Source of the DNA: Octopus sinensis
Taxonomy: Eukaryota
Direction: 5' to 3'
Length of the DNA stretch: 64,000 nt
NCBI RefSeq assembly: GCF_006345805.1
Contig: NC_042997.1
Span: forward strand, 200,384,001-200,448,000
Of the stretch, positions 1,002-61,305 are shown one piece after another (the first letter of the stretch is position 1; each line of letters starts with the position of its first letter). The notes under the pieces were generated by a model. It was given only the letters and a program-made list of their open reading frames with translations. It ran no database searches and was not told the DNA's origin. A program made the position numbers and the translations under genes.

Positions 1002-1347
1002 TAATTTAGATGACAATTAATTCACTGCATCCTGTATATATATATATTAGCCACCGATTGCTGGCCTTTCGTGTCCAGCAGCCGTTGCGGCAAGACACAC
1101 TTTTTTGTCTCTCTGTAGCCCTAAGGCTTTCTTCTAACACCAGCTCGTAAATTTACTCGTCCTGTCGAAAAAACGCTTGTCTGTGACGTCCTGTTTTTGT
1201 TGTTATTATTATTATCATTATTGTTTTTACGTATTTTTGTATTCTTATTCGTGTAACATCGTCCGTTTTTCCGTCCTTGTTTTGTATACATTCGAGGCTT
1301 TCTTCCAAGGAATCTAATGCGCTTGGCTTGGATTTTCCTTTGGGGCT

Positions 1348-1425
1348 GGCCAGATCGGAGCAATGTCAAGATTAATCAGCCGAAATTGCGAAGATGATCC
1401 GGTTCTTGACTGAAGATTGAAGGCT
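1348..1425 (+). ncRNA. Reverse-order (pseudoknotted) hammerhead-like ribozyme, copy 1, probably inactive (G at position 17)
   Basis: GCAAT(1360-64)/ATTGC(1385-89) stem III; TCAAGA(1366-71)/TCTTGA(1404-09) stem I; GAA 1382-84; CTGAAGA 1410-16; AGCC/GGCT possible stem II after a 5-nt insert. Confidence 0.6.
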
Positions 1426-1607
1426 TCGAATGTCCCGTCCGTGTTTTTTGTATCGTTTTCTAAATGTTTCACGTTCTTGTCCCAGTTTGTATTTTTTTAC
1501 ATTTACGTATATATATATATATACATAGTTCATGTTTAGTTAAATGAAGGAAAAAGGTGGAGAGTTAAAATGATAATTATTAATTATTAAAAAATTGGTA
1601 ATCTTTA

Positions 1608-11930: not shown

Positions 11931-12416
11931 TGTTGCAAGGATGGTGGCCGAACCAAGAAAGAAAGGTCAGGCTTGCCCGAACACCAGTCACATGGGGAGA
12001 GAGGTAGAGGCAGAGGGACAGAAGAAATAAGGAGGGGAGAGAATAAATGACAGGGAGACTGAAGTGAAAAGAGGAGGGAAAGTGAGCATGAAGAGAAGGC
12101 AATGAAATGTGAGAGAGGGGAAACGAAAGAACGAAGAGTGGAATGAATGAAGTAAGCATGAAAGGGCCGATAGAAAGAATAAAAATAGTGTCTTCTGCTA
12201 TAGCCCCGGGCCGACCAATGCCTTGTGAGTGGATTTGGTAGACGGAAACTGAAAGAAGCCTGTCGTATATATGTATATATATATATATATATATATCACA
12301 ATCAAGGAACGGCCATAATAGGCCATTCACCCACTAGAAATAACAGCCAAAAAGCTTCAACCGCAAAATAACATTAATTCCGTAACCAGGAGAAAATTAA
12401 AAAACATTTACCCTGA

Positions 12417-12523
12417 ATTCCTTATACGATGCACCGTTTCGTCACTGTTTAATGGTAAACTAACCTGATTAAATTAAATCAAGCAAAATCTACCATAGGC
12501 CCTTAGATTCATCAGTAAGGAAT
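12417..12523 (-). ncRNA. Type I hammerhead ribozyme, array unit 1
   Basis: Reverse complement of 13676-13781; predicted cleavage between 12425 and 12424. Confidence 0.8.
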
Positions 12524-12905
12524 AGCCAAATCGGAACAGATATTTTTCACGAGGCATTCTCGTCCATGCCTCGCCAATATCTGACCTAAAATTTTCAAAT
12601 CGTCGCACTCGCGCCAATTTATCGGCAGCCAAATAAATATAAGCCGCCGATTCCATTACGGAACCAACCAGAAAATTCATAATTAATCAATATAGGGAGG
12701 CAAAAAAATTTTGTAGAATTCTTTTGCCCCCAGCGGCCTAGTGGGAAAAAATTAAATAGTCATAAACCATTTTTAAGTTCAATATCACAATCAAGGAACG
12801 GCCATAATAGGCCATTCACCCACTAGAAATAACAGCCAAAAAGCTTCAACCGCAAATAACATTAATTCCGTAAACCAGGAGAAAATTAAAAAACATTTAC
12901 CCTGA

Positions 12906-13012
12906 ATTCCTTATACGATGCACCCGTTTCGTCTACTGTTTAATGGTAAACTAACCTGATTAAATTAAATCAAGCAATCTACCATAGGCCCTTAGATTCA
13001 TCAGTAAGGAAT
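12906..13012 (-). ncRNA. Type I hammerhead ribozyme, array unit 2
   Basis: As unit 1; predicted cleavage 12914/12913. Confidence 0.8.
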
Positions 13013-13394
13013 AGCCAAATCGGAACAGATATTTTTCACGAGGCATTCTCGTCCATGCCTCGCCAATATCTGACCTAAAATTTTCAAATCGTCGCACTCG
13101 CGCCAAATTTATCGGCAGCAAATAAATATAGCCGCCGATTCCATTACGGAACCAACCAGAAAATTCATGATTAATCAATATAGGGAGGCAAAAAAATTTT
13201 GTAGAATTCTTTTGCCCCCAGCGGCCTAGTGGGAAAAAATTAAATAGTCATAAACCATTTTTAAGTTCAATATCACAATCAAGGAACGGCCATAATAGGC
13301 CATTCACCCACTAGAAATAACAGCCAAAAAGCTTCAACCGCAAAATAACATTAATTCCGTAAACCAGGAGAAAATTAAAAAACATTTACCCTGA

Positions 13395-13503
13395 ATTCCT
13401 TATACGATGCACCGTTTCGTCTACTGTTTAATGGTAAACTAACCTGATTAATTAAATCAAGCCAATCTACTACCATAGGCCCTTAGATTCATCAGTAAGG
13501 AAT
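13395..13503 (-). ncRNA. Type I hammerhead ribozyme, array unit 3
   Basis: As unit 1; predicted cleavage 13403/13402. Confidence 0.8.
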
Positions 13504-13675
13504 AGCCAAATCGGAACAGATATTTTTCACGAGGCATTCCGTAATGGAATCGGCGGCTTATATTTATTTGCTGCCGATAAATTTGGCGCGAGTGCGACGA
13601 TTTGAAAATTTTAGGTCAGATATTGGCGAGGCTGGACGAGAATGCCTCGTGAAAAATATCTGTTCCAATTTGGCT

Positions 13676-17094: not shown

Positions 17095-17178
17095 TTATAT
17101 ATATATGGATTGTCAATGTATCATATAGCCGAAAAAGATACATGCTCTAAAGCATAGAGTAGTAAGGTATTTATGTTT

Positions 17179-17422
17179 GTTAAGACTATGTCAGGTCATA
17201 GAACGACCAATGGTTTCCACAAAGGGCTTAGGCCCATAGATGGTTCGTCAGCCACTAAAGCCAAAGACAAATGTAATTCTTCATCTCTGGGAGGCATGAA
17301 TCCTCCCAGATAGGAAGTGTTACATTTGTTTTCGGTTTTAGAGTCTGACGAGCCATCCATGGGGCTAAGCCCATTGTGGATGGGAAACCATTGGCTACCC
17401 TATGACTAGACATAGACTTAAC
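17179..17422. mobile_element. 244-bp fold-back element with a hammerhead remnant in each arm
   Basis: Imperfect palindrome with 7-nt loop 17295-17301; plus arm CTGACGA(17345) GCCATCCA...TGGATGG GAAA CCATTGG; minus arm CTGACGA...GAAA CCATTGG TC. Confidence 0.8.
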
Positions 17423-17442
17423 TACATACATACATACATACA

Positions 17443-17478
<36 letters not shown>

Positions 17479-17632
17479 TAATTTTTTTTTGACTCCTTAT
17501 TCGCATAATCACTGACCCTGGAACTTAACTATGATCTGTCCGTAGCACTTACTCAGCATTACCTGACACCTTTGGGTCTTATTGACGCCATTACCTCTCA
17601 TAACCTATATATATATATATCAAATGACACGT

Positions 17633-50275: not shown

Positions 50276-50471
50276 TTATACTGAGTCTCTCCTTTGATTA
50301 AAATAATCTTTAATCTTTCAGCTATTTAATGCTTTTTTGGGGACCTGCAGTCGCCTATAATATTAATTCTGTTTTTATCATTTTAATTATTTTACCCTAG
50401 ATAATAATAGAGTTAATGATATCATCATAAATATTTTCTACTGAATTATTTGTTCCGTATTGGAATTATAC

Positions 50472-50509
<38 letters not shown>

Positions 50510-50573
50510 CAAAAGGATGTGTTATAATACTATTCCACATATACAAAAACAGACATACCAACAATCTGACATA

Positions 50574-50640
50574 CTTCCATCATCAGCTGCCCCTCGGATA
50601 TCATTATGGTTTCGACACCTGGGCAGTACAATTCAATCCG
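50574..50640 (-). ncRNA. Reverse-order (pseudoknotted) hammerhead-like ribozyme, copy 3 (GUA site)
   Basis: Minus: CGGAT TGA ATTGT A CTGCCC AGGTGTC GAA ACCAT AATGAT ATCCG AG GGGCAG CTGATGA TGG; 6-bp stem I, stem III with one mismatch, outer helix CGGAT/ATCCG. Confidence 0.65.
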
Positions 50641-50774
50641 GTGGTGTCAACAGCACTAAAATATGCATTGTTTGGGAAGAAACATACCAAAGAAACCACA
50701 ACTTTCAAACACATTTACACTATGTACAACATTATTGGTAAATAAATTCAATAAGTAAATCTATAACCGACTCC

Positions 50775-50819
<45 letters not shown>

Positions 50820-52268: not shown

Positions 52269-53066
52269 ACCGACAGAATTTTCTGCAAAATATGGATAGT
52301 TTATCCTGTTCATGCTATATTATTAGCATTATCAGTGTCAGGTGAGGAGGGTGATTTGGACACCCAGCAGGACTAAAAACAAAACCTGTCAAAGGGCAGA
52401 GGAATAAAGTTGAATAAAGTTGAAACATGGTCTGGTTTTTACGTTTTTTTTTATTATGATATTAAAAAAAAATTATTGCAATGTTGAAGTGTGCTAAATA
52501 TTAAAGAAATATTTTGTAATGTTCATGAATTTCAATTAGCGCTTTCATACGTTCGTAGTAATCACCAGATTTCAAAATGTATTTAACTGACAGTTGAGTT
52601 CTTGACATCTGTATTAAAATGACAGACTTCTTCCTTTTAATACTTCTTAAAAGGCTCCAACAAGCTGAATTTTTCGAATACGATTCTGACCAATTCGCAT
52701 GCGGCTCAAACGTCACGCTTTGCCAGGCGTACTGATATTACTGGCATAGATCCCCACCAATTAGCTTTCAGTTTACATGCAATGGTTTTAGGAATGAGCA
52801 AACTTAGTTGGTTTTGATCGTTTTTATTACTTCTGTAATTTGTTTATATTCGTATGTTAAAGATATTTTTTAACCCACGTCATTAACTGGTTGTTATATT
52901 ATTGCTGTTATTTCCATTCAAAACAGGTTTGAACATTTTAATAAACCGTTTTTCTTTTATCTTTCTTCCAACCTCACTTATGTCGTGCAGTTTGTGGAAA
53001 AGAAAAATTAGAAACAGTTCCTGACCACATGTTTCTGTATGTTCGCTCAGTGGAAGTTGGCGAACA

Positions 53067-54560
53067 TAGAGAAGAAATTTTAGGTGTGGAAGCAAGGTTT
53101 AGAATGGAAGGGCCTTAGAGTCAATGTTGCAAAAGCCAAAGTCCTAGTAAGTAGAAAGGCGAACAAATCACAAACTCCTTCAGGTAGATGGCCCTGCTTG
53201 ATCTGTAGAAAAGTTGTAGGTAGAAACTCCATAAGATGTACCCTGTGTAAGCTATGGGTGCATAAGAGGTGCAGCAACATCAAAGGAAGGTTAACCGGGA
53301 GGATAGTTTTTGTGTGGCAGATTCACAGGGCCAATGAACACCAAAGATGTTCAGAAAACAGGTTCCATCACATACCAGGGGGAGAAACTAGAAGTAGCTG
53401 GTAGCTTCTGCTACCTAAGTGACCAAGTCTGTTCTGAGAACATTGCCACTAGAATAAGAATAACCTGGGCAAAGTTTAGAAAGCTCCTACCTCTGCTGGT
53501 GATAAAGGGCTTCTCGCTCAGAGTGAAGGGTAGACTGTATGATGCATTTGTGCAAACTGCCATGGTACACGGCATTGAAACATGGGACATGAAGGCTGAG
53601 AACATGCGTAGGCTTGAAAGAAATGAAGCCAGTATGATCCGTTGGATGTGTAATGTCAGTGTGGACACATAACAGAGTGTAAGCAACCTGAGAGAAAAGT
53701 TGGACATAAGAAACATCAGATGTGGTGTGTAAGAGAGATGACTGCGCTGGTTTGGTCATGTGCTGCATATGGATGAGGAGAGTTGTGTGAAAAAGTGTCA
53801 CTCCCTAACAGTGGAAGGAACCTGTGGAAGACGGAGACCCAAGAAGACATGGGATGAGATGGTGAAGCACAACCTTCGAACATTGGGCCTTACAGAGGCA
53901 ATGACAAAAGACCGTGACCTCTGGAGATATGCTGTGATTGAGAAGACCCAGCAAGTAAAATGAGATCACTGCCGTAGCCTATACCAGTGTAGCATAACCA
54001 GCACATTTAAAAAGTACCCTTGAACTGTCGGGTGAAACGCCTTACTTGAGGAGACCTATTGAGTCAAGTAAAATCAAAATCACAATCAGAATCGAAATCA
54101 AAAATGGAAATTGTAGTTGTGACTGATGCCAGTGCCGCCTGACTGGCTCCCGTGCTGGTGGCATGCAATAAGCACCATTCATGCGTGGGTCGATGCCAGT
54201 GCTGGCTGACTAGCTCCCCGTGCTGGTGGCATGTAAAAAGCACCATCTGAACGTGGTCGATGTCAGCCCCCCACCTCGTCTGGATCTTGTGCTGGTGGCA
54301 CATAAAAAACACCATCCAAACCTGACCAATTCCAGTGCTGCCTGACTAGCTCCCGTGCATGTAAAAAGCATGTAAAAAGCACCCACTACACTCTCGGAGT
54401 GGATGGCGTTAGGAAGGGCATCCAGCTGTAGAAACCTTGCCAGATCAGATTGAAACCGGGTGCAGCCATCTGGATTGCCAGTCCCCAGTCAAATCATACA
54501 ACCCACGTCAGCATGGAAAACGGATGTTAAACGATGATGATGATGATGATGATGATGATA
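53067..54560 (+). mobile_element. 5'-truncated RTE-type LINE: frameshifted ORF2 C-terminus (to 53963), repetitive 3' UTR, (GAT)n tail
   Basis: GLRVNVAKAKVL, Cys/His finger WPCLICRK..CTLCKLWVHKRC, SFCYL, KGRLYDAFVQTAMVHGIETW, RWFGHVLHM, RRRPKKTW. Confidence 0.92.
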
Positions 54561-54561
54561 A

Positions 54562-54960
54562 TGTGAAAGCCTGTCCAATTTTTGTTCTAATGGATCTACC
54601 AGTATGCATGTATTGACACATTCCATATCCTTTATCATTGCACTTGGATACTGTCAATGTTTTATCCTGTTTGTTTGTTCATGTTGAATTTTACTATTTT
54701 GTTTATAGTTTCTTTAGATGATGTGGTTGCCTTTTCCTTGAGATAAATATTTGATTAGTTATTATGTTTTTTAAGTTTTCACTTTGTTTCATAACAGACA
54801 AATTTGTTTTGATGATGTTAAAAATGCTTTGGTGATGCGGATTGTATGTTACTAGAAATGGTAGTGTATTCCGTTGATGGGTTTGTCTTTCTCGTGTTTC
54901 CAAAAGTTGTTCTCTAGGAATCTCTTTTGCTCGTTGAATGCTACTTTCTTCAAATTCAGA
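54562..54960 (-). pseudogene. Penelope-like element (Neptune-type) ORF remnant, linker between RT and GIY-YIG
   Basis: IQRAKEIPREQLL..LPFLVTYNPHH..IFNIIK..RQPHHLKKL, then in frame past stops VSKCNDKGYGMCQYMHTGRSI (decayed Cys motif). Confidence 0.75.
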
Positions 54961-56405: not shown

Positions 56406-59085
56406 TATATATATATATATATATATATATAAACATTAAAAAAAATTTTTGTAGATATAATAATGAAAAGTGTGAAAATCGGACCATGTAACTTTATTCA
56501 ACTGATATATTTTTCTATACACACACAAATTCGGGGGAGTATATCTATGTATGTATGTATGTATGTATGTATGTATGTATGTATGTATGTATGTATGTAT
56601 GTATGTATGCATGTATGTATGTTAGAGGGAAAAGGACAACAAAAACCAAGGCAGGATGAGTATCTCAAGTCATTTAGAATATTTAATTAGAGTAAGGTGA
56701 AATTGAGGCAAAATTCTTATATCCAAATGATATTTCATTCACCAGACTCTACCTGTTTTTCAAGTAAGAGAATATTTCATTCTAAACGTATCTGGATGCA
56801 CAGAACTACACAGAACTAACAGAAACTTTGTTGAAAGGAAATGCCAATAAATGTCACCAAATACTACCCAACCAAAAATTATGATGTTTCCATTTATAAC
56901 TGAGCCGTATTGCCATAGCTCAGTGTTCTTTTGTAGGCGTTTCCCCAAACACAGAGGCGCATGTACACCACAAACATACACACGCACATGTCTGATAATC
57001 TTTTATTTTCCGTCTACCAAATCCTTTCATAAAGCGTTGATTGGCAGAGATAGACCTGGGAATAGTTCAAATCAACTAAAGAATCGTAAAGCTGACTTGG
57101 GATATATTATCATCCTCATCATCATCATCGTTGTGCTTAACGTCCGCTTTCCATGCTGGCATCAGTTGGACGGTTTGACTGAGGACTGGCAAGCCAGAAA
57201 GGTGTACCAGACTCCAATCTGATCTGGCAAGGTTTCTACAGCCGGATGCCCTTCCTAACGCCAACCACTCCGAGAGTGTTGTGGATGCTTTTATGTACTA
57301 CCAGCATGGGAGCCAATCAGGTGGTGCTGGCATTGGCCATGCTTGAATTGTACTTTTTACGTTCACTCAGCTGTAGAAATGAGTTGCAACATCACTGGTG
57401 TCAAGCTGTATCGGCCTTTGCCTTTCCTTTGGATAACATCAGTGGTGTGGAGATGGGAGGCCGGTATGCATGGGCGACTGCTGGTTTTCCATAAACAACA
57501 CTGCCCGGACTTGTAACTGGGAGAGTAACTTTCTAAGTGCAATCCCACAGTCAGTCATGACCGAAGGTGGTCTCAATATATTTATATTCTCTGTGAGTGT
57601 ACGTCGTTGTGTCTGTTTTTGTCCTCCCCTCCACTGTTTGACAATCGATGTTGGTCTGTTTACATCCTCATAAGTTAGCGGTTCAGCAAAAGAGAACAAC
57701 AGAATAACCACCAGGTTGAAAATGAATTGAAGTGCTGGGAACTAAAACTCTTCAAGGCAGTACTCCAGCATGGTCGCAGTCTAATGACTGAAAGAAGTAA
57801 AATATACCACTAACTAAGATTGCAGCATTCTCCCTCAAAAGTGGTGCCATGTCTGGCATCTGGTTAAATCCCCAGCTATTGTTGGGTTTTATTTACAGCT
57901 GAATGGTTTGAAGCAAGAGAAAATGAAGTGTCTTGTCCAAGAATATAACATACTACTTTGACCGGGAATGAAACCACGATTTTATGAGCAGTAGTGCAAC
58001 ACCCTAACTACTGGACCACATATTTTCACATCTAGTTATATGAATGTTTTCTAATTTAAACACGGGGCTGGCAATTTTTAGGGAATAGGGTTTTTGTTAA
58101 TACGATCAACTCCAGTTCTTACAATGAGTCGTATCTTTATTTTATTGGCTCTGAAAGGAAGATAGACAAAGCTAAACTGGGTGGGATCTGAACTCACAAT
58201 ACAACGAAAATTTTAATTTTTAGTTGTACTGAGAATGTAATGTAATAATAGTTTAAAATTTCAAAACAAAGTATGAAAACTAATTAATTTGTGAAAATTT
58301 GAAAAATTTACATTTGAAAATTTAGAAACTTGTAAAATTTTATAAATTTTATTCATATAGACACCAATTTCGTCAGATTCCAAATTTTCCCAACACACAC
58401 ACACCACACAAATGTACACATGTGTATATACACATAGGTGCAAATATGTGTGTGTATCTGTGCGTACATATTTGTGTGAGCGTATATGTATGTATACAAG
58501 TGTGTGTGTGTGGATGCAAGAAATGTATTTCTAAAACATTTTCTCTAAATGTCAAGTGTTATATGTTTGTTTAAATTCTGTTTTACTCATCATATTTGTA
58601 GAAATATTTCTCCTGATTTGCTAATAATAAATTTTGAATTTTCTTCTTCAGAAAAGATGGAACTTTGTTTGAAGAAAGAGTAAATTAAAACGAAATAAGG
58701 AAGGAATATTAAACGAAAAGAAACAAGCTGGAATTCTAAGGTAGCAGCTATAGCTGTGTGGTTTACATATACACATTTCAACTACACACTTGTGTGTTTG
58801 GTTGATTCTTGCGCATGGTTTGGTAAGATTTCCCGTTTTTCCATTTTCCTTTGCTCCAGCTTACTGCGCCTGTCTGACAGTTGCAAGACCCATTTTGTTT
58901 TTATTTGTTATTGTTGGAATTGTACAATTATTTCCCTTCTGTTGTTTAGCCGAAAGGCGTTTGTCCATTGTATATGCATAATTATTTTCTGTTGCACTTG
59001 CATTATTATTTCATTATTATTTCATAACGTTATGTTCGTTAAAAAGTCGAAAGACCTTTCCTGTTATTTACCTATTTGTATTCGT

Positions 59086-59259
<174 letters not shown>

Positions 59260-59837
59260 GTTTAACATCCGCTTTCCATGGGTTGGACAATTTTGACCGA
59301 GGGCTGGCGAACCAGATGGCTGCACCAGGCTCCAATCTTGATCTGGCAGAGATTCTACAGCTGGATGGTCTTCCTATCGCCAACCACTCTGAGAGTGTAG
59401 TGGGTGCTGTTTACGTGCCACCGGCACTGGGGCCAGTCAGGCGGTACTGGCAACGACCTTGCTCGAATCTTTTTACACATGCCATCAGCACAGGTGCCAG
59501 TAAGGCGACGTTGGTAACGATCACGCTCGAATGGTGCCCTTTTTTCGTGCCACGGATATGGAAGCCAGTTGGCTGCTCTGGCAACGATCACGCTTGAATG
59601 ATGCTCTTAGCACCCTACTAGCATGGGCGCAAGTGCTAGTAAGGCGACGCTGGTAGTAGGGCGACGCTAAAAATTTCTTTTCCCTCCACTTTATTGTATA
59701 GCTGAAAGGTGTTCTGCCGTACATGTATAATTCTAGCTTTCTTGTTTTTCTTTCTATTCCTGTTTTCGTTCTTGTATACATTCATCTGCCTCTTTCCCAG
59801 AGGCTTAATGCTTTTAGGTTAAGTCCCTGCACCCGCC

Positions 59838-59905
59838 GAACTTGAGTAGTACCAGAGATAAAGGAGCGAAACTACCAGCAGTTTCTGGACTCTGACTGAT
59901 GAGCT
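59838..59905 (+). ncRNA. Reverse-order (pseudoknotted) hammerhead-like ribozyme, copy 4 (GUA site, fully canonical core)
   Basis: GTAGT(59846-50)/ACTAC(59871-75) stem III; A17 at 59851; CCAGAG/CTCTGA stem I; AGC(59865-67)-GAA; CTGATGA(59896-902)-GCT stem II with G10.1-C11.1. Confidence 0.75.
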
Positions 59906-60512
59906 AATCAGCTGCAAATGATCCATGTATCTTGTTTTTGTACTGTTTGCCATTTGTTGTGCTGTCGTCCATTTTCCCGCATGTCGTGTTTTGTTGGTTT
60001 CCGTTTGTGCTTACCTTACGGTAGGTGTGCATCTAAATTTTATACAGCTCTTACTCTATCTTTTATTCCCCCTCTCATTTTTCTTCCTTTTTCTCGCTCC
60101 CCCTCTCTCACATTTCTTAGCCTTTCTTTCTTTAACTCCCACTATTTCCCACTTGTTTATCTCCTCTGCATCTTTCTCTTTGTCTCTGATTTTTGTCTAA
60201 TCCTTCAATCACGCTACCCCCTACCCATCTCTCCTTCTTTCTTGGCCTGACTACCAACCGCCAACACCTCTCATGTCCATCTCCTAAGTTCCTGCCTTTA
60301 GGCTTTCACTTTATACACGCCAGCCCATTTTGATGTGTTCTCAGTAGAAAGATGCATGTTGTTATTTCTTGTTGTTTGTATTCGTAATTGTGTACCATGT
60401 TCTCCGTTTCTTTTTTGTTTGTTTGTTTTGTTTGTCTTTGTAGCCATACACATTCGCTAGCTTTCTTACAAAAGGGCTCTAATGGTCTTAACTTAGACTG
60501 TTTTGGGAGCAA

Positions 60513-60585
60513 CCAGATCGAACCATCTCAAGTGTATCTGCCGAAATGGTCGTGACTCCTGGGACTTGACTGAGGAAAGAAAGCC
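60513..60585 (+). ncRNA. Reverse-order (pseudoknotted) hammerhead-like ribozyme, copy 5 (AUC site)
   Basis: ACCAT(60522-26)/ATGGT(60546-50) stem III; C17 at 60527; TCAAGT/ACTTGA stem I; GAA 60543-45; CTGAGGA 60570-76; stem II weak. Confidence 0.65.
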
Positions 60586-60740
60586 TGTCCTTCTAATTGT
60601 TGATCTTCTTGTCCGCCTTTGTATCGTCTATCTGTCCGAATATTTTAATGCCCTCTATTGCGTATTTTTCCATGCTTTCTGATGGAATCCTTTTCTGTAG
60701 AGAAAGGGACTTCATTCTATATTGTTAGTATATATATATA

Positions 60741-60780
<40 letters not shown>

Positions 60781-60952
60781 TCATCATCATCATTAAACAT
60801 CTGTTGTCCATGCTGGCATGGGTTGGAATACACACATACATACATGGATGCATGCATCGCATACGTATATGCATATATACATATATACATGCATACATAC
60901 AAATATACAAAGGGGTTTGTTCAGTTTCTCTCTATCAAGTTCATTGTAAAGT

Positions 60953-61305
60953 TCAAATGACACCGAGTGAAATCTTTATTGCTATTCTTTAAATTCTGAG
61001 TTCAAATACAACTTGGGTCAACTTTGAAGATCATCATTTTGGGGTTGGTAATAATGATGAAAATCATTTTATATTTTTTAGCTCATTCATTTTCCTTTTT
61101 TTTCATCTCACCATCATTGTCATCATATCCTTCTCCTCCCTTCCTGTTCCTCTTCCTCCTCCCCCTCCTGTTCCTCCTCTCCATCATCATTGTTCTAATT
61201 GTCATCATCATCATCATCATCCTTGTCATCATCACTATCATCGTCATCATCACCTTCATCATCACCTTCATCATCGTCACCACCATCACAACCATCATCA
61301 TCATT

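Follow-up and report, generated by a model that had tools for sequence, protein, structure and literature searches.

Two non-coding Penelope-like repeat families (A and B) that adjoin in a 64,000-nt stretch of Octopus sinensis DNA (hereafter, the window) appear, on balance, to carry an active hammerhead ribozyme with a wiring that is not in print. According to the model built from their alignments, it would be a non-circular permutation braced by a kink-turn, with the catalytic strand split from stem II by a four-way junction; it may be the ribozyme thought to be missing from Naiads and would be used by several short non-autonomous families stacking at (TA)n tails. In the literature searched, subscription papers aside, neither the split fold nor chains of this kind were described. 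The block that holds both families (59690-60730) quite probably consists of three distinct non-coding Penelope-like repeats chained head to tail, namely A, B, and the 60-nt tail of a family C, which likely arrived by successive insertions; A and B each have a predicted split-core hammerhead in reverse order near the 3' end. The linked pair itself is an ordinary one-off pile-up of mobile elements, and it is the ribozyme that carries the interest.

The genome is repeat-rich and 2.7 Gb in size. The block is U-rich, as stated in the initial annotation, with a T content of 41% compared with 32% in the window. It and its surroundings were resolved into the following parts:

58812-59087, + strand: upstream part of a 5'-truncated family A copy, non-coding and T-rich, with hairpins capped by a GAAA loop at 58949 and 59046 (delimited by blastn, longer A copies serving as queries)
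59088-59668, no strand assigned: later insertion splitting family A, a (CAT)n run and a high-copy repeat with internal repeats of ~65 bp
59669-60008, + strand: 3' part of family A; other copies extend ~28 nt further and have a (TA)n tail
60005-60008, + strand: A/B junction, 4-nt microhomology TTGT
60005-60673, + strand: nearly full unit of family B, lacking ~20 nt at the start as well as the (TA)n tail, and with a ~22-nt deletion after 60585
60670-60729, + strand: last 60 nt of a young ~421-nt repeat, family C, joined to B at a 4-nt microhomology, CCAT
60729-60778, no strand assigned: (TA)n tail, a sequence into which these elements preferentially insert, judging from the 3' flanks of A, B, and C copies

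The two hammerhead copies were delimited from the alignments and pair counts:

59779-59920, + strand: hammerhead copy 4, decayed
59779-97, 59798-829, and 59829-33, + strand: copy 4 helix X 5' strand, hairpin P0, and stem II 5' strand
59844-45, 59846-50, and 59849-51, + strand: copy 4 kink-turn GA, stem III, and site GUA, with the predicted cut after 59851
59852-57, 59868-71, 59890-95, and 59896-902, + strand: copy 4 stem I, GAAA, stem I', and CUGAUGA
60451-60584, + strand: hammerhead copy 5, core intact, passing the descriptor
60460-67, about 60469-505, and 60507-11, + strand: copy 5 helix X 5' strand, P0, and stem II 5' strand
60520-21, 60522-26, and 60525-27, + strand: copy 5 kink-turn GA, stem III, and site AUC, with the predicted cut after 60527
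60528-33, 60543-46, 60564-69, 60570-76, and 60577-84, + strand: copy 5 stem I, GAAA, stem I', CUGAGGA, and helix X

The two reverse-order cores described initially were recovered, both on the plus strand. CUGAUGA spans 59896-59902 and CUGAGGA 60570-60576; GAAA precedes them at 59868 and 60543, respectively, with the site triplet further upstream, and the predicted cuts do lie 676 nt apart. Every core letter was present in both copies. In copy 5, the core was intact, as were the three stems, with a single bulge in stem II, and the near half of helix X. In copy 4, the kink-turn G was mutated, on account of which the copy failed the strict descriptor, the first stem I pair was mismatched, and helix X (after A9) was broken; judging by these defects, copy 4 is likely inactive. 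A contig of the locus from run X2 (3 differences in 323 nt) had T for C at 59852, which pairs in stem I; the alleles may differ. The motif is beyond chance: a descriptor comprising stems I-III and the kink-turn gave no matches in 100 shuffled windows and two in the real window, copy 5 and a copy at 50627. Rfam reported no hammerhead at the gathering score over the window, nor within 59200-61000 at E<=10. When copies 4 and 5 were folded as nested structures, they scored no better than shuffles (z -0.28 and -0.69), which is uninformative since a poor score is expected for a pseudoknot.

One fold was obtained from both family alignments, which comprised 29 rows for A and 25 rows for B (24 of the 29 B loci were used). 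Its 5' half consists of the helix X 5' strand, P0, the stem II 5' strand, an outer stem, GA, the stem III 5' strand, the site, and stem I; the 3' half consists of a short linker, the stem II 3' strand, GAAA, stem III, a 3-nt bulge, GA, the outer stem, the stem I 3' strand, CUGAnGA, and helix X. As the strands follow in the order site, GAAA, CUGAnGA, the three stems I-III cross one another. Stem II would take its 5' strand from upstream, behind P0, and A9 would be followed by helix X; the kink-turn would fold the extended stem III back, its 3' strand then feeding stem I. The kink-turn consensus is a 3-nt bulge, then tandem G-A and A-G pairs, between two stems, and we take the 3-nt bulge with tandem GA pairs in the A/B fold to be a match to it. 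The GA/GA was present in 21-25 of the 25 B rows and in 24-29 of the 29 A rows.

Pairing was observed in 86% and 92% of the cells in the two family alignments versus 24-47% when the partners were slid, and stems I and III had 83-95% of their cells paired. Double changes numbered 25 versus 18.0 in shuffles and 9 versus 4.2, values reached by 8 and 6 of 500 shuffles; the excess of covariation is modest, and these sequences had also served to derive the structure, so this measure is weak alone. Stems I, II, and III had different sequences and yet were paired in four families of this genome. Within the core, N7 varied among the 25 B rows (G in 12, T in 7, A in 5, and C in 1), and the other positions each differed in at most two; among the 29 A rows, H17 was A in 15 and C in 11, N7 varied too, and the remaining core was nearly fixed. 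Stem II formed with the upstream strand was paired in 112 of 121 cells in B and 113 of 139 in A. A contiguous stem II after A9 was paired in 53 of 123 cells (B) and 49 of 140 (A) and was rejected; its first pair alone was possible in A (25/28) and absent in B (2/25). A simple type II hammerhead with local hairpins was also rejected, with stems I and III weak in that arrangement and the crossed stems pairing across families.

The 5' ends of the copies gave mixed signs of the predicted cleavage. Four of the five upstream partial A copies began 0 to +14 nt after the predicted cut, compared with one of 12 copies sampled without length bias. For family B (30 of 33 pattern matches), the 5' end lay upstream of the predicted cut in 24 of 30 copies and within 5 nt of it in two, with no pile-up at the predicted cut among these 30 copies, and five of the nine upstream partial B copies read through it. 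Circular templates would give a similar 5'-end picture, and uncut templates were the main substrate of an anole Penelope-like element in vitro, according to the available text of PMC11167929. The motifs might also be structured 3' ends, such as protein-binding sites, that are hammerhead-like but no longer cut. This explanation is compatible with the chain and is favored by the mostly read-through B insertions, by the Poseidon-clade element that inserted in vitro without needing its hammerhead, a ribozyme that cut only when protein was present (PMC11167929, available text), and by the separation of A9 from G10.1, which lies outside the hammerheads described in the available text of PMC10085705. 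We nevertheless consider it unlikely, given that the full catalytic core is kept in four families, with free variation only at N7 and among the cleavable H17 letters, and that the upstream partial A copies start mostly at or just past the predicted cut. If the ribozyme is active, as we prefer, its likely job would be the cutting of tandem or read-through element transcripts, and RT and endonuclease may be supplied in trans by Naiad-type elements.

Hammerheads of type SGC (HRIMA-1 and variants) cleave in vitro and were discovered in metatranscriptomes instead of in the genomes of known organisms (Eckert et al., 2023, PMC10085705, available text). As described there, they agree with the A/B RNAs in block order (site, GAAA, CUGAnGA) and in having three stems that cross, every core nucleotide, and an NUH site. 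However, Eckert et al. assume that CUGAnGA is directly contiguous with its stem II strand, whereas two helices lie between them in A/B. The A/B fold also has a kink-turn in stem III, while "kink" occurs zero times in the main text of that paper as available; helix X and P0 are placed differently from the extra helix of type SGC, which binds stems I and II; and the A/B ribozymes sit in high-copy animal repeats, unlike the metatranscriptomic type SGC. With the contiguity of CUGAnGA and stem II failing, the A/B RNAs are not strict members of type SGC, though they would work like them. If the A/B ribozyme cuts, it breaks the explicit assumption that CUGAnGA and stem II cannot part, places in animal genomes the non-circular permutations known from environmental RNA, and accounts for Naiads having been called hammerhead-less in descriptor searches.

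On sequence grounds, the link to Naiads is direct only for the copy at 50451-50800 (minus strand of the window), a 5'-truncated Naiad 3' end with a split-core hammerhead (predicted cut at 50627) for which there are 1765 candidates genome-wide. This copy nearly matches the published ends of Naiad_Obim and Naiad_Ovul, and both consensus sequences end in the A/B ribozyme fold (available part of the PMC8557442 supplement). Naiad_Ovul is annotated as "HHR_half_core" in that work, and Craig et al. (2021, PMC8557442) reported no canonical hammerhead in Naiads, as far as the available text goes. Naiads, as described there, resemble A and B in their (TA)n targets, partial tandem and inverted copies, and optional tail of 30-40 bp. 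However, A and B are non-coding units of 0.75-1.2 kb, whereas the Naiad clade has an ORF with an N-terminal GIY-YIG and a C-terminal RT; A and B had no sequence match to the Naiad consensus set published in the available part of PMC8557442, and the fold alone is shared.

No GIY-YIG/RT ORF was found in the A and B units, and the 1.5-kb flanks contained no RT or endonuclease, save an unrelated fragment downstream of L015. No Penelope-like RT or GIY-YIG match adjoins the two halves of the block in the window. In a search for an autonomous partner, 9-kb extensions of 20 of the 147 GIY-YIG matches contained neither A nor B, and the long ORFs among these loci had a C-terminal endonuclease. Likewise, 20 of 40 copies of the Naiad-type end, extended 4 kb upstream, were all 5'-truncated within the untranslated region. 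As A and B have neither an ORF nor a sequence link to a described Naiad, we infer, rather than observe, their mobilization by Naiads. Unbroken Penelope-like frames of 762-883 aa with a C-terminal GIY-YIG were present at four other loci (L101, L102, L103, and L104), with many near-identical genome copies, and fragments of an ORF for a Penelope-like RT with a C-terminal GIY-YIG were detected at 52913-54948 on the minus strand of the window (tblastn E to 2e-26). The anole Poseidon element (Frangieh et al., 2024, PMC11167929, available text) is like the families described here in its AT-rich targets, internal RT start, tail, and use of uncut RNA as a template; unlike A and B, it is autonomous and has a C-terminal endonuclease and a minimal canonical hammerhead.

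The chain itself was delimited by comparison with other copies. Blastn of longer A copies against the window showed that A homology ends at 59087 and restarts at 59669; contig cover was very deep across 59300-59635, within the insertion. Elsewhere, A copies run ~28 nt beyond 60008 into (TA)n, and B copies start ~20 nt ahead of 60005, after (TA)n. With the whole block as the query, the window's own match alone started before 60005 (query 316; best 40 of 3082 candidates scored), and with 59685-60010 as the query, all matches ended at or before query 325 (~60009; best 40 of 326 candidates scored). A query spanning the A/B join, for which the best 40 of 241 candidates were scored as a partial sample, gave one match crossing the join, the window itself; nine matches stopped there and 30 started there. 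Among 122 other A/B/C locus records, which represent about 38, 55, and 19 distinct places, respectively, there was no A-then-B pair and no C with A or B; A and B met in one place only (L127/L157), on opposite strands. The A-B linkage is a one-off, and the expectation that homologs would keep both motifs linked was not borne out. Contigs of runs X2, X3, and X4 (two studies, one of which may be the source of the assembly) bridge the A/B join, which is therefore not an assembly error. Run X1 had no cover over family A, which is uninformative. The B/C join was bridged by none of the contigs listed, with 152 further pieces beyond those; 40 further sequences matched the segment 60670-60729, with identities of 92-98%.

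Copies of each of the three families terminate at (TA)n and have 5' truncations of variable extent; the families also occur as partial tandem and inverted copies, and the optional tail of 30-40 bp is present in family A. These features are supported as marks of Penelope-like elements by the available text of Craig et al. (PMC8557442), in agreement with the Penelope-like nature first proposed for the pieces. Independent adjacent insertions, offered at first as an alternative, are supported, with three elements instead of two. A would have inserted at a (TA)n run; B would then have entered the (TA)n tail of A by target-primed reverse transcription, with its 5' end joining A at TTGT, and its arrival would have removed the tail and 28 nt of A. 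C would have inserted into B later in a similar manner, joining at CCAT. B and C have complete 3' ends and A has a clipped one, as would be expected if the newcomer deletes the target at its 5' join. Under the chain reading, the 676-nt spacing is an accident, being made up of 157 nt of A and 519 nt of B; core-to-core spacing in natural same-family tandems was 753-895 nt (five B) and 969-1236 nt (three A).

Non-CpG divergence from the family majority was 7.7% for the A copy of the window (21/271), 6.4% for the B copy (37/581), and 1/58 for the C copy, where 58 sites were used and a wider C stretch, spoiled by internal inversions, was left out. The family medians were 8.1%, 6.5%, and 1.7%, respectively, and family C is young. 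The ages of the A and B copies did not differ (Fisher p=0.47), and the comparison of B with C gave p=0.24 on these copies alone; hence, we infer the order of insertion. Since A and B are unorderable by age, they could also have arrived in one event, in which RT copied the B RNA and switched template to the A RNA at TTGT, with C following later. Such a switch would produce an identical microhomology and is in line with the about equal divergence of A and B; in addition, this equality, the shared fold, and similar unit-start motifs suggest that both likely used the same enzyme. However, sequential insertion into tails does occur here, as seen at L054, where family E, then a fourth family, and then A follow on the same strand with a (TA)n run left between partners, and no second A-B chimera was present among the 40 scored junction matches and the 122 locus records. 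We therefore see the single event as improbable and favor successive insertions. A is also fused to the fourth family at L034.

The same-strand chains of different Penelope-like families noted besides the block lie at L054:1760-2215 (-), L034:1780-2030, and L025:1500-2410 (-), and the fourth family has a minimal type I core reading CCGACGA. The unit starts (tails) of A and B are alike (L060:845-905 and L007:1440-1530), a resemblance suggesting that reverse transcription starts from a common signal in both.

The initial annotation had proposed one Penelope-like terminal repeat or retrozyme spreading as a unit, with a 676-nt RNA excised by two paired ribozymes, and although both cores lie on one strand, an A tail upstream of B mimics a natural tandem, and the X2 contig has the T at 59852 that pairs in stem I, this is very improbable in view of the separate boundaries, the A-then-B order that recurs in none of the 122 other locus records, the junction crossed by the window alone among the 40 matches scored, and the broken kink-turn and helix X of copy 4. 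The chain pattern is a warning against assuming that ribozymes lying next to each other in such genomes work as a pair.

The hairpin previously noted before the (TA)n tail is real, and lies at about 60688-60709; its description as a possible type I remnant was not confirmed, because GAAA is paired within the stem, the core sequence is CUGAUGG, and there is no stem I. CCAUG is the pairing partner of the upstream GAUGG, four of nine relatives have T for C3, and no Rfam match to the motif was obtained (E<=10, 59200-61000). The third motif is the 3' hairpin (tail) of family C and not a remnant ribozyme. The family consists of ~421-nt units in tandem and inverted arrays and has a proper type I hammerhead ~280 nt before the 3' end, which places it ~220 nt upstream of the present piece, outside this copy. 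The stem II loop of that hammerhead is palindromic (L062:1140-1560; G000:C10191:52986-55527). Family C looks like a non-LTR retrozyme. Retrozymes, in the available text of Cervera and de la Pena (2020, PMC7229834) and Li et al. (2026, 10.64898/2026.07.22.740005), are, like A, B, and C, short non-autonomous Penelope-derived units with one hammerhead each, and family C, with its 421-nt unit, type I core, and tandem arrays, agrees well with the non-LTR retrozymes described there. However, those repeat one unit with a type I hammerhead, whereas the block joins three units, of which A and B are not type I.

Several other features of the window were observed. A copy of family E at 1067-1513 (+) has the A/B fold with the site AUG and is likely dead on account of that site; around the ribozyme, E and B are 67-73% alike. 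In A, B, and E, the sequence upstream of the ribozyme repeatedly contains short GAAA-loop hairpins (58949 and 59046 in the window; L112 and L142), which may be a further RNA signal. At 17167-17480, there is an inverted pair of decayed hammerhead-like motifs in canonical order (CUGACGA at 17345 on the plus strand and at 17251 on the minus strand), which belong to another Penelope-like family. A 489-bp unit is present in 2.5 tandem copies (97% alike) and an inverted copy at 12293-13539 and 13684; these units have CUGAUGA in a short hairpin with GAAA 33 nt upstream and do not fit the split-core fold. Finally, the segment 52196-52268 (+) resembles a tRNA (Rfam 41.6 bits) but its anticodon arm is irregular; it is possibly a repeat head or a pseudogene.
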